Source: an uncultured Bacillales bacterium (GTDB lineage Bacteria; Bacillota_I; Bacilli_A; RFN20; CAG-288). From it: DNA of 64,000 nucleotides. The DNA is taken from assembly GCA_949287425.1 (NCBI GenBank), contig CASEGJ010000010.1, forward strand, positions 1,343 through 65,342, read 5' to 3'. The position numbers and the translations under genes were made by a program. The stretch's first letter is position 1. Each line of letters opens with the position of its first letter. Below, piece after piece: positions 60,921 through 64,000 of the stretch. Below the pieces are notes generated by a model. That model was not told where the DNA came from. It saw only the letters and a program-made list of their open reading frames with translations, and ran no database searches.

Positions 60921-60936
60921 TTTGGAGGTTGAAAAT

Positions 60937-63519
60937 ATGTTAATGGAAAAAAATTACAATCACAAGCAAGTAGAAGAGGGAAAATTTGAAAAATGGAAAA
61001 AAGATGGATATTTTGATTCATCTAATGATTTATCTAATAAAAAAGAGAAATTTTCAATGATTGTTCCACCTCCTAATATTACTGGTGTATTGCATATTGG
61101 CCATGCATTAGATACTTCCATATATGATATCTTTGCTAGATATAAAAAACTTCACGGCTATGACGTATTCTTTTGTCCAGGCACTGATCATGCTGGAATT
61201 GCTACTCAAGCTAAAGTTGAAGCTAATCTTGCTAAACAAGGATTAACTAGATACGATTTAGGTAGAGAAAACTTTGTAAAAGAAGTTTATAAATGGAAAG
61301 AAACTACTTCTTCAACAATTCATAAACAATGGGCTAGTTTAGGAATTGGTATGGATTATAAAAAAGAGCGCTTTACTATGGATGAAAAAACAAGTAAGGC
61401 AGTTATGGTGGTTTTTAAACAGCTTTATGATGAAGGATTAATCTATCAAGGTGAAAGGATAATTAACTGGGATGTCGAACTTCAAACAGCTTTATCTAAT
61501 ATTGAAGTTGAACATAAAGATATACCGGGAAAATTCTATTATTTTAAATATAGATTAGCTGATGATTTAGATAAGTATTTTGTAATTGCAACCACTCGTC
61601 CTGAAACTATGTTTGGCGATGTTTGCGTCGTATTTAATCCTAAAGATGAAAGATATAAAAAATATGAAGGTAAATATGTAATAAATCCAGCTAATGGTGA
61701 AAAATTAATCATGATTTCTGATTATTATGTCGATAAAGATTTTGGAACAGGCTTAATGAAATGTACTCCTGCTCATGATCCTAACGATTTTAATATTGCT
61801 AAAAGGCATAATTTAGCTATGCCAGTTTGTATGAATAAAGATGGAACTATGAATGAACTTGCTAAAGAATTTAACAAGTTAGATAGATTTGAATGCCGCG
61901 ATAGATTAGTAGAAAAAATTAAAGCTAACGGCGATTTAGAAAAAATTGAAGATATCGTTCATTCTGTCGGTCATTCTGAAAGAAGTCACAGCATAGTTGA
62001 GCCTAGATTATCTAAACAGTGGTTTATTAAAATGAGACCATTAGCTGATAAAGTTTTAGAATTACAAAAAAACAAAGAAACAAAGATCAATTTCTTTCCA
62101 AAGCGTTTTGAAAGATTATTTGAACAATGGTTAGTCAATACAGAAGATTGGTGTATTTCTCGTCAATTGTGGTGGGGACATAGAATACCTATCTATACCA
62201 ATAAAAAGACTGGTGAAATTGTTTGTTCTATTGAAAAATTAGATGAGAATGAATACGTTCAAGATGAAGATGTTTTAGATACTTGGTTTTCGTCTGGATT
62301 ATCTCCATTTGCTTTAAATGATTGGCCAGATGTTGAATCTAGTTTATATAAGAGATATTATCCGTTAGATTTGATGATTACCGGTTATGACATTTTATTT
62401 TTCTGGGTTGCTAGAATGGCTTTTATGGGAGCTCATTTTACCTCTAAATTGCCATTTAAGAACTGCTTTTTGCACGGACTAGTTCGCGATGAACAAGGTA
62501 GAAAGATGTCTAAATCATTAGGTAATGGTATCGACCCGATTAAAGTTATAGATGAATATGGCGCTGATTCACTTAGATATGCTTTAGCAACTAGTGTAAC
62601 TCCTGGTCTTGATATGTCATTTGGTTATGATAAGATCAAACAGGCTCATATTTTCTTAAATAAAATTTGGAATGCAGCTAGATTTGCTATTATGAATTTT
62701 GACGATTCATTTTTCGAAGAAGATATTTCTAGCTTAAAATTAAATTTTTTGGATAGTTATGTGTTAGAGCATTTAAATCGCACCATTAAAAATGTCGAAA
62801 GAAATTTTGATAAATATGAAATTGGGCAGGCGGCAAATTATTTGTATTTATTTATCTACGATGTTTTCTGCTCCAATTATATTGAACAAATTAAAGTTGA
62901 TCTTTCTAACTTGGAAAGAAAAAATACCGCTTTAAACGTCTTATTATATGTTATTAAGTCTATACTTATTATGTTGTTCCCATATGCGCCATTTATTTCT
63001 GAAGAAATATACTCATATTTACCAAATCACAAAAACTCCATCTATGAAGAAGCTTATCCGCATCTTATAAAAATCAAGGCTTCCAGTTTGGGAGATCATT
63101 TAGTAGATATGATTAAAGAAATACGACGTTTTAAAGCTGATAATAAACTTTCTCCTACTTTTAAAGTCGATGTTGATTTGTATGCGAGTAAATCAAATTT
63201 TGACAAGTTAGTTCCATATTTGACAAAAGTTGGATTTACCAATCAAATTAAACTTGTCAATAAAGATGAGATTGATTCTAATTTCCGCTATTTTACTAAA
63301 AATATCGCGATGAAAGTATATTCACTGCAAGCTAGTAAAGCTTTAGAGGAAAGAATTAATAAACGAATTCAGGAATTAAAATTTGAGATTGATAGAATTG
63401 ATAAAATGTTCGCTAATCAAAACTTTGTTTCCAAAGCTCCTAAGGCTAAGATAGATTTAGAAAAGCAAAAGCGCGAAAAGTATCAAGAAGAGCTGGATTC
63501 TTATTTATCAAAATTATAA
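60937..63519 (+). CDS. valS: valine--tRNA ligase
   Basis: PPPNITG.LHIGH, TTRPET, DWCISRQLWWG, KMSKS, C-terminal coiled coil; start after SD GGAGG. Confidence 0.99.
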   Translation: MLMEKNYNHKQVEEGKFEKWKKDGYFDSSNDLSNKKEKFSMIVPPPNITGVLHIGHALDTSIYDIFARYKKLHGYDVFFCPGTDHAGIATQAKVEANLAKQGLTRYDLGRENFVKEVYKWKETTSSTIHKQWASLGIGMDYKKERFTMDEKTSKAVMVVFKQLYDEGLIYQGERIINWDVELQTALSNIEVEHKDIPGKFYYFKYRLADDLDKYFVIATTRPETMFGDVCVVFNPKDERYKKYEGKYVINPANGEKLIMISDYYVDKDFGTGLMKCTPAHDPNDFNIAKRHNLAMPVCMNKDGTMNELAKEFNKLDRFECRDRLVEKIKANGDLEKIEDIVHSVGHSERSHSIVEPRLSKQWFIKMRPLADKVLELQKNKETKINFFPKRFERLFEQWLVNTEDWCISRQLWWGHRIPIYTNKKTGEIVCSIEKLDENEYVQDEDVLDTWFSSGLSPFALNDWPDVESSLYKRYYPLDLMITGYDILFFWVARMAFMGAHFTSKLPFKNCFLHGLVRDEQGRKMSKSLGNGIDPIKVIDEYGADSLRYALATSVTPGLDMSFGYDKIKQAHIFLNKIWNAARFAIMNFDDSFFEEDISSLKLNFLDSYVLEHLNRTIKNVERNFDKYEIGQAANYLYLFIYDVFCSNYIEQIKVDLSNLERKNTALNVLLYVIKSILIMLFPYAPFISEEIYSYLPNHKNSIYEEAYPHLIKIKASSLGDHLVDMIKEIRRFKADNKLSPTFKVDVDLYASKSNFDKLVPYLTKVGFTNQIKLVNKDEIDSNFRYFTKNIAMKVYSLQASKALEERINKRIQELKFEIDRIDKMFANQNFVSKAPKAKIDLEKQKREKYQEELDSYLSKL

Positions 63520-63526
63520 AAAAATT

Positions 63527-63562
63527 AACTCCTTTAGCTATATCATAGTGAAAGGAGTTTTT
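63527..63562 (+). terminator. valS terminator hairpin containing the SD of the next gene
   Basis: AACTCCTTT (63527-35)/AAAGGAGTT (63551-59) stem followed by T-tract. Confidence 0.75.
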
Positions 63563-63566
63563 ATAT

Positions 63567-63746
63567 ATGAAAAAATTGAACGATTTTGAATTGGAAATGG
63601 TTGAAGGTGGGGAAGCAATCACTTTATCAGCGGTGATGGCTGTTTTGGCAATTTCAATTGTTGCGATGGTTTGCTATAGATTTTTCTTATCTAACAAAGG
63701 TGAAGTTGAATTGCCAGGTGGTTTTACATTTAAATGGGGTAAATAA
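63567..63746 (+). CDS. 59-aa double-glycine-leader peptide (bacteriocin/pheromone precursor-like; not in ORF track)
   Basis: Manual translation MKKLNDFELEMVEGG|EAITLSAVMAVLAISIVAMVCYRFFLSNKGEVELPGGFTFKWGK*; SD AAAGGAG; TAATG overlap with radC. Confidence 0.85.
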   Translation: MKKLNDFELEMVEGGEAITLSAVMAVLAISIVAMVCYRFFLSNKGEVELPGGFTFKWGK

Positions 63747-64000
63747 TGATATTGAAAGAATATCCTCTTGAGCTTCAGCCTCGTGAAAAGGCAATTAGAT
63801 ATGGAATTAAATCACTTTCTGAAACTGAATTGTTAGCGTTGATATTACAATCAGGCTGTCATCAATTAGACGCTTTAGAAGTTTCAAAAAATCTATTAAT
63901 TAATCATGGTGGACTTAAAAATTTATCTAAATCAAATTTGTTTGAGCTATATTCACCAGGGATTAAAAAAGCAAAGGGATTAAAGTTAATGGCAGTATTT
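63746..64000 (+). CDS. radC: RadC family protein, 5' part (runs off window)
   Basis: Manual translation MILKEYPLELQPREKAIRYGIKSLSETELLALILQSG..GGLKNL..PGIKKAK. Confidence 0.9.
   Translation, partial: MILKEYPLELQPREKAIRYGIKSLSETELLALILQSGCHQLDALEVSKNLLINHGGLKNLSKSNLFELYSPGIKKAKGLKLMAVF

Follow-up and report, generated by a model that had tools for sequence, protein, structure and literature searches.

The nearest described counterparts of the system reported here are those ATP-binding cassette transporters that carry a peptidase domain (PCATs), among them PCAT1 of Clostridium thermocellum with CtA (PDB 6v9z, 4ry2) and the PCAT or ABC transporter maturation and secretion (AMS) proteins ComA and LahT. 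We analyzed a window of 64,000 nucleotides (the whole stretch of DNA studied, from contig CASEGJ010000010.1 of assembly GCA_949287425.1), which belongs to an uncultured, genome-reduced gut member of the Bacilli, and focused on a peptide gene between valS and radC, together with the single C39 peptidase protein encoded elsewhere in the same genome. This pair shares with PCAT systems the C39 fold with its Gln, Cys and His residues, a six-helix exporter domain (PCAT1 being the best structural match of the protein as a whole) and, on the peptide, the type of leader that such peptidases cut. It differs from them in three respects: the nucleotide-binding domain is missing, as is the membrane domain in some families; the genes for peptide and peptidase are unlinked and reside in housekeeping operons (valS-radC and ybeY-cdd-era-recO); and the cargo, as predicted from its sequence, would be a conserved single-pass membrane peptide, whereas theirs is variable and secreted.

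Other known systems bear a partial likeness. Class IIb bacteriocins (TIGR03949) and Bacteriocin_IIc (PF10439) are alike in leader motif and hydrophobic stretch, but the peptide described here has no partner, immunity or transporter genes, its core is conserved, and it is a single-copy core gene. The Mbov_0121 family (NF045998) is the best NCBIfam match of the genome's own C39 protein, but at 23 bits, short of the 500-bit equivalog cut-off, and with no ATPase in the latter. Ribosomal protein L27 of Firmicutes carries an N-terminal extension that is removed by the cysteine protease Prp. There, too, a housekeeping protein has a short pro-sequence and a dedicated cysteine protease from a core operon; protease fold and substrate are unrelated, and the parallel is one of analogy only. 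Finally, HetC of Nostoc is, in the portion of the source available (PMC10986499), likewise a PCAT-type exporter that serves the cell's own physiology (differentiation) and not antagonism, but it is a full transporter, from another phylum and with another cargo.

Here, we present evidence that the ORF probably encodes the precursor of a small, conserved membrane protein of the cell's own, matured by a PCAT-derived C39 peptidase. A double-glycine peptide/C39 system has, we believe, turned housekeeping in these bacteria; its genes are divided between two core loci, and its ATPase is gone.

A single-copy core gene between valS and radC

The first-pass annotation of this DNA had called attention to an unannotated 59-codon open reading frame (ORF) with a strong Shine-Dalgarno (SD) sequence, filling the slot between valS and radC in a core locus and overlapping the radC start in a TAATG. 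All of this was confirmed. The ORF (59 aa, MKKLNDFELEMVEGG-EAITLSAVMAVLAISIVAMVCYRFFLSNKGEVELPGGFTFKWGK) is real, being borne out by the sequence itself and by homologues across the order; the last A of its TAA (63744-63746) is the first letter of the next ATG; and Pfam identifies the ORF that starts there as RadC, with the UPF0758_N domain in the part that lies inside the window.

We searched six-frame translations of an order set of 61 genomes (8 families, 26 genera) and recovered a homologue in 59 of them, covering 26/26 genera and 49/49 good-quality genomes and usually present as a single copy; the two genomes without a match are 65% and 88% complete. A class sample, drawn evenly and separate from the order set, contained the peptide in 49/49 of its in-order genomes. 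The peptide is therefore a single-copy core gene of the window's order, and its placement is near-constant: radC lies downstream on the same strand in 52/60 loci inspected, and a ValS match upstream on the same strand in 49/60, within the flanks fetched. The proposal that the peptide is lineage-specific was too narrow, given that it spans the whole order, Erysipelotrichales-type families and two mollicute families that use genetic code 4 (code-4 families).

Profile searches of public proteins returned 293 proteins in one case and 138 clusters at 50% identity in another. Lengths fall within 35-185 aa, apart from a single protein of 520 aa; every entry is either unnamed or a 'hypothetical protein', and Pfam domains are absent throughout. 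With the peptide alone, a word-index search retrieved 4 proteins only, and its neighbours in the ESM Atlas are 'hypothetical protein' clusters of Bacillota. We found no description of the family in the literature, in a search to which supplementary files, which may hold gene lists, did not belong. The present analysis thus adds a real, conserved gene to genomes in which it is mostly uncalled or labelled 'hypothetical protein'.

A constrained membrane core behind a double-glycine leader

The claimed double-glycine leader proved genuine. Across 59 order sequences it follows the consensus L-12 (45/59), E-8 (48/59), G-2 (54/59) and G-1 (55/59), with G14 and G15 each at least 90% conserved and an exact GG in 46/59, and it co-varies with a C39 gene (see below). 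Further near-invariant columns of the same alignment are G45, P50, G51, G52, F55 and W57, those of the tail reaching at least 90% each. The conserved core comprises a transmembrane (TM) helix, the motif Y-[KR]-x-F-x-S-x-x-G and an LPGGFxFxW beta-hairpin. In the AlphaFold model (mean predicted local distance difference test [pLDDT] score 80.8), a short leader helix (residues 6-11) is followed by a break at the GG, a long helix (16-41) and two strands (44-49 and 53-58) whose hairpin turn falls on P-G-G. Hydrophobic and polar residues alternate along the hairpin, which marks it as amphipathic. A fold search with this model matched no solved structure at E<=0.001. At one locus (L023, genome G020), the position of the conserved Trp holds an in-frame TAG; this copy could be a pseudogene or encode a shortened product, or the sequence could contain an error.

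The suggested comparison of leader and core came out in favor of the core. Over 76 moderately diverged pairs, the proportion of nonsynonymous differences (pN) lay far under the synonymous proportion (pS), which is saturated at ~0.75; pN came to 0.40 for the leader but only 0.16 for the core. Mean column entropy in the 59-sequence alignment gave the same picture, with 2.53 bits for the leader, 0.5 for the GG, 1.52 for the TM helix, 1.6 for the juxtamembrane segment and 1.33 for the tail. A core more constrained than its leader is the opposite of what bacteriocins and pheromones display.

These data bear on whether the peptide is an ordinary class II bacteriocin of the two-peptide type, exported against competitors, a reading that we consider unlikely. 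Pfam yields nothing for the window peptide, and NCBIfam assigns it to TIGR03949 (class IIb bacteriocin, lactobin A/cerein 7B) at 22.3 bits, just over the 21.5-bit cut-off. Weak matches extend to 10/59 homologues for TIGR03949 (E<=0.01) and 11/59 for PF10439, and full PCATs in related families, as well as four copies, in tandem, in one genome, would also suit a bacteriocin. However, the TIGR03949 alignment is limited to model positions 2-37 of 45, that is, to the leader and the start of the helix; with few members matching, and over this part, the resemblance to bacteriocins is one of leader, not of family. The genomic setting speaks against a bacteriocin as well: the peptide is a single-copy core gene across the whole order and beyond, its neighbours are valS and radC, and no partner peptide, immunity or transporter gene lies nearby. 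A second TIGR03949-type peptide was not found in the window's own genome. Moreover, the core is the more constrained part, and the peptide persists alongside exporters stripped of the ATPase or of everything except the peptidase, and in leaderless form where there is no C39 gene. The earlier suggestion that this is not an ordinary bacteriocin is accordingly upheld by core-gene distribution, core locus and constrained core alike.

A type IV prepilin or Flp-type signal was also considered and rejected, as PF01478 (Peptidase_A24) has no match in the window's own genome (94% complete). For the 59 members, 25 Pfam families are listed, and none of these is a pilin family.

The genome encodes one C39 peptidase protein without an ATPase domain

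The genome search for a C39 peptidase that the first-pass annotation proposed returned exactly one PF03412 match over the cut-off, with the catalytic Cys and His in place, on a contig other than that of the peptide. The protein is a 390-aa ORF with the Pfam C39 domain at residues 2-127; it gives no match to ABC_tran, the ATPase domain, and the ORF ends there, followed by ybeY. Its locus comprises replication-initiation-type genes, the C39 gene and then ybeY-cdd-era-recO-glyS-dnaG-rpoD. Hence, the statement that no transporter, immunity or sensor gene lies upstream of the peptide holds locally, where no transporter, kinase or immunity-like gene adjoins it among the neighbours read; genome-wide it does not, because a C39 protein is encoded at another core locus. 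The two ORFs in front of the C39 gene (434 and 315 aa; G000 contig C1 135805-138058) resemble replication-initiation or helicase-loader genes by position, and the 315-aa ORF had no Pfam match at E<=0.001.

The predicted structure of the C39 protein (pLDDT 86.4, predicted template modelling score 0.73) consists of the C39 domain and six long helices. Foldseek placed substrate-bound PCAT1 first (6v9z_A, E 4.7e-13), with PCAT1 chains as the top matches; by sequence, the 390-aa protein found 0 matches among solved structures, and a word-index search returned only itself. On the strength of this model, the C39 partner appears to be PCAT-derived, having kept the exporter-type membrane domain and lost the ATPase.

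A single C39 gene is present in 58/61 order genomes and 49/49 of good quality, the genomes without a match being 61-86% complete. Its open frames measure ~390-440 aa in most families of the order and ~120-210 aa in two. The gene stands directly upstream of a Pfam-confirmed ybeY in 11/13 loci from seven families. Neither Cys10 nor His85 varies among 24 sequences from the order or among 12 chosen to represent every architecture, and Gln4 is at least 90% conserved.

Lined up by architecture, these proteins form a reduction series from full PCATs of ~670-690 aa with a nucleotide-binding domain, through ~590 aa, to ~390-430 aa without this domain and finally ~120-210 aa with the peptidase only. Of the parts of the protein, the peptidase alone is retained whenever a leader is present. 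Since the peptidase-only forms contain no TM segment, cleavage without export is the sole role that a PCAT remnant could keep there. This series of domain losses argues that leader cleavage is separable from export; in a double-glycine system that serves the cell's own physiology, it would run from full PCAT to loss of the ATPase, to the peptidase only and, at the end, to no peptidase and a leaderless peptide.

Outside the order, leader and C39 gene occur together

Beyond the order, the peptide profile detects homologues in a number of other families, including those of the named species Dielma fastidiosa, Intestinibaculum porci, Kandleria vitulina and Eggerthia catenaformis, in all of which the product is called 'hypothetical protein'. 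Being cultured, these four carriers make the proposed maturation testable. In Erysipelotrichales-type loci the peptide precedes radC, followed by mreC (Pfam-confirmed) and an mreD-like ORF without a Pfam match. Some Erysipelotrichales-type peptides have a GG leader; others are leaderless, 41-45 aa long and start at the helix, retaining TM helix and tail.

In a first out-of-order set, a C39 gene occurred in 12/12 genomes with leader-bearing peptides and in 0/5 with leaderless ones. For a second set of seven new carriers the outcome was predicted beforehand, and C39 was present in 3/3 leader-bearing and 0/4 leaderless genomes. Outside the order, the totals are thus 15/15 leader-bearing genomes with C39 and 9/9 leaderless genomes without it.

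Such agreement is what a small membrane protein that is never cleaved, its GG being a mere helix break and its co-occurrence with C39 coincidental, would not lead one to expect, and we regard this explanation as quite improbable. The order sequences lacking an exact GG would fit it, as would the fact that the C39 gene is unlinked to the peptide. Yet the leader has a wider consensus, with L-12 and E-8 besides the GG, and none of the 24 out-of-order genomes makes an exception to the pairing of leader and C39. Even where only the peptidase is left, its Cys and His do not vary, which implies that a substrate exists, and the genome holds no other TIGR03949-type peptide that we could find.

Several observations weigh against maturation by C39 into a membrane protein of the cell's own. 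The GG is replaced by GN, GY, GK, VG, PG, AG or G-x-G in 13/59 order sequences, and some of these replacements would be poor C39 sites. At the D of a D-P motif shared by most relatives, the genome's own C39 domain carries F. Judged by the RadC tree, leader and C39 may have been lost together in only one or two events within one family, and the figure of 9/9 leaderless genomes does not amount to nine independent trials for this reason. The full PCATs of related families, and the four peptide paralogues of one genome, are in keeping with export and a role outside the cell in those bacteria.

The genome with four paralogues (G392; loci L167 and L168) is of the Erysipelotrichales type; three of the copies form a tandem array ahead of radC-mreC-mreD, and the fourth follows valS where a contig ends. 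Some other Erysipelotrichales-type loci have a small membrane protein between peptide and radC (L073 2629-3042, L169 2438-2818, L077 287-649); compared with the SPOR domain at four loci, this protein scored over the Pfam cut-off in 2, below it in 1 and without a match in 1 (L070). In other small-genome Bacilli, of families f13 and f14 (L172-L175, L182), a full PCAT and a ~140-aa TM protein are immediately followed by 2-4 different GG-leader peptides. These come in conserved pairs, ending ...HPKKC... and ...C-P-(L/I), and make up a second conserved double-glycine system, unlinked to ybeY.

The peptide is independent of RadC

Peptide and radC are tightly arranged. Among 57 loci with a called downstream ORF, stop and start overlap in 28 (by one nucleotide in 15 and by four in 13), and a gap of 0-14 nt separates them in a further 11; for part of the remainder, start calls are crude. 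At one locus (L040, genome G025), peptide and radC share a frame with one stop codon between them. This geometry, along with an adjacency that extends from the order to the Erysipelotrichales-type families, could point to a dedicated RadC partner, be it a membrane anchor or a substrate of the JAB metalloprotease domain of RadC. JAB metalloprotease domains do cut after Gly-Gly in other systems. Nevertheless, a search for the RadC domain (PF04002) that matched two positive-control genomes gave no hit in 7 order genomes (87-93% complete) with an intact peptide followed by a Sel1 protein, or in 3/3 genomes of the code-4 family f23, again with an intact peptide. Its retention in 10 genomes without a RadC match shows that the peptide does not depend on RadC; in addition, RadC is widespread without the peptide, and the leader tracks C39, not RadC. 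A dedicated RadC partner is, on balance, improbable, and RadC as leader protease or obligate partner was rated low once the ten genomes had come to light.

The coupling to radC looks like shared expression in an old valS...radC-mre neighbourhood rather than dependence. In the portion of the source available, radC is placed in an ancestral MRE/MIN cluster (PMC8136486), and the peptide would be an added member of this radC/mre neighbourhood, the function of which is treated there as an open question. A role tied to MreC/D was ruled out for this organism: MreC and MreD of an Erysipelotrichales locus have no tblastn match in the window's own genome, and neither has the Pfam MreC model.

The first-pass annotation had linked the peptide to competence and DNA uptake, and this link is unsupported. 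Its proposed search for com genes and a histidine kinase/response regulator pair recovered ComEC, present in the genome and unlinked to the peptide; no such pair adjoins the peptide or the C39 gene. A secreted, ComC/BlpC-like pheromone tied to competence is very unlikely. It would draw on the double-glycine leader, on ComEC and on radC being competence-induced in streptococci, as the excerpts at hand describe it. It is at odds, however, with the missing kinase and regulator neighbours, with a mature part that, according to the model, would contain a 26-residue hydrophobic helix and that is the most conserved region across families, showing no pherotype-like divergence, with the retention of the peptide in the ten genomes just described, and with the absence of an exporter ATPase linked to the C39 protein. 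The hydrophobic and strongly conserved core also argues against a diffusible signal.

A proposed route of maturation

Our preferred reading, a cell-own membrane protein matured by C39, would proceed as follows. The peptide would be translated from the same mRNA as radC. The genome's single, PCAT-derived C39 peptidase, which has no ATPase, would then recognise its 15-residue leader and cut it off after G15. The 44-residue product (EAITL...) would stay in the membrane of its producer, with one TM helix, a juxtamembrane segment and an amphipathic hairpin, and may serve some membrane process in cis, as one of its subunits or regulators, not as a secreted toxin or pheromone. Ancestrally, a full PCAT probably threaded the tail across the membrane, a state that would be kept in Erysipelotrichales-type and code-4 families; in the window's order, the ATPase would have been lost, in some families the membrane domain too, leaving only leader cleavage.

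Two considerations on topology diverge. The segment preceding the helix has a mean net charge of -0.4 and the one following it +2.1, a bias that, by the positive-inside rule, favours an N-out/C-in orientation. PCAT ancestry favours the opposite, N-in/C-out.

Code-4 mollicute families and orphan C39 transporters

The peptide family extends to mollicutes in which TGA occurs inside conserved frames. In family f23, the peptides are 103-107 aa long and lie between greA-like and rplU-like genes (named from ORF starts), and a reduced PCAT precedes ybeY. In family f28, a profile of six code-4 peptides gave one match in 52/61 genomes, from 14/16 genera. When twenty of these hits were read out (L184-L203), 19/20 had the leader, the helix, S-x-S-G-E-I-K-T-K and K-W. 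The conserved tail Trp is encoded by TGA in 15/20, and any gene call with table 11 would truncate these. A conserved motif, PIYF(I/V)Y or GFHYC, closes most of the peptides.

The ybeY-linked PCATs of related families also have NF045998 as their best NCBIfam match, at 128-327 bits. Its 500-bit cut-off is passed in 19/400 class genomes, all of them members of f28. It is a tentative proposal that the peptide family is the natural substrate of the 'orphan' C39 transporters which genome-reduced Bacilli and mollicutes retain beside ybeY, among them the Mbov_0121 family and the ATPase-less form of uncultured gut Bacilli, in a joint housekeeping pathway of pro-peptide maturation. The minimal cell JCVI-syn3A keeps a C39 ABC transporter, 0401 (MMSYN1_0401); according to the part of the article available, it has no known candidate for a double-glycine peptide (Breuer et al. 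2019, PMC6609329). The same excerpt states that other mycoplasmas are likewise without a known double-glycine peptide and speculates about a different function (Breuer et al. 2019, PMC6609329). Mbov_0121 itself comes up in two papers, which simply list it in the passages available.

The code-4 family f18 counts against too ready an extension. There, no peptide was found with the profile (0/24 genomes), a search of 5 genomes with TIGR01847, which is independent of TIGR03949, gave nothing near the cut-off (0/5), and the PCAT loci themselves are also without a GG peptide. Because f18 shares the PCAT-ybeY locus and gave no peptide, the link to syn3A stays a candidate only. Loci of f18 and f35 (L176-L179, L181, L183) contain a PCAT of 652-680 aa, a 117-144-aa TM protein and ybeY-, dgkA- and cdd-like ORFs (named from ORF starts), and no GG peptide was detected in them.

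If the proposal is true, a small membrane protein was important enough to survive extreme genome reduction, its transporter having been stripped stepwise to a protease. It would also offer a concrete substrate for C39 proteins that have been without one, namely the ATPase-less form of gut Bacilli and the C39 ABC transporters of mycoplasmas.

Features of the locus

Coordinates are collected in Table 1. Genes upstream of the peptide encode Lon, a GTPase, a C1-like aminopeptidase and ValS. Reading on past 64 kb, as the first-pass annotation had recommended, gave the full radC gene on the contig (226 aa, RadC JAB and UPF0758_N) and then a Sel1-repeat protein alone before the contig end.

Table 1. 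Positions of the peptide gene, its parts and its neighbours in the window
Feature	Position	Strand	Remarks
Whole peptide gene, including stop	63567..63746	+	Read from sequence, homologue search and alignment
Double-glycine leader, residues 1-15, MKKLNDFELEMVEGG	63567..63611	+	Predicted cleavage after G15
Predicted mature N-terminus EAITL and TM helix, residues 16-41	63612..63689	+	Segment ends Y37-[KR]38-x-F40-x-S42
C-terminal amphipathic beta-hairpin, residues 44-58, L-P-G-G-F-x-F-x-W	63696..63740	+	Best conserved part
radC, 5' part	63746..64000	+	Gene reaches 681 nt, past the window end; start overlaps peptide stop
valS, upstream neighbour	60922..63519	+	Pfam tRNA-synt_1, Anticodon_1, Val_tRNA-synt_C
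Shine-Dalgarno AAAGGAG	63551..63557	+	9 nt 5' of the ATG, read directly
Terminator-like hairpin after valS	63527..63559	+	3' arm is the SD of the peptide gene; T-run follows

Across the window's family, radC is succeeded by the Sel1-repeat protein gene (here G000 contig C10 65812-66771, past the window end). Where a genome has no RadC match, this gene comes directly after the peptide (L025, L027, L034 and L039 among the loci). The Sel1-repeat protein is a possible binder of the conserved peptide tail.

An SD of the GGAGG type precedes nearly all homologues. In the window, it forms one arm of a hairpin with a predicted free energy of -14.4 kcal/mol (z -4.26), and 0/200 shuffles fold as well. 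In 51/60 related loci (L007-L065 range), the minimum-energy fold likewise pairs the SD, with arm sequences that differ and co-vary. A promoter and terminator scan found no plus-strand promoter between valS and the ATG and did not call the hairpin by its simple rules. Together, these features suggest that termination after valS is coupled to translation of peptide and radC, or that the mRNA starts inside the loop.

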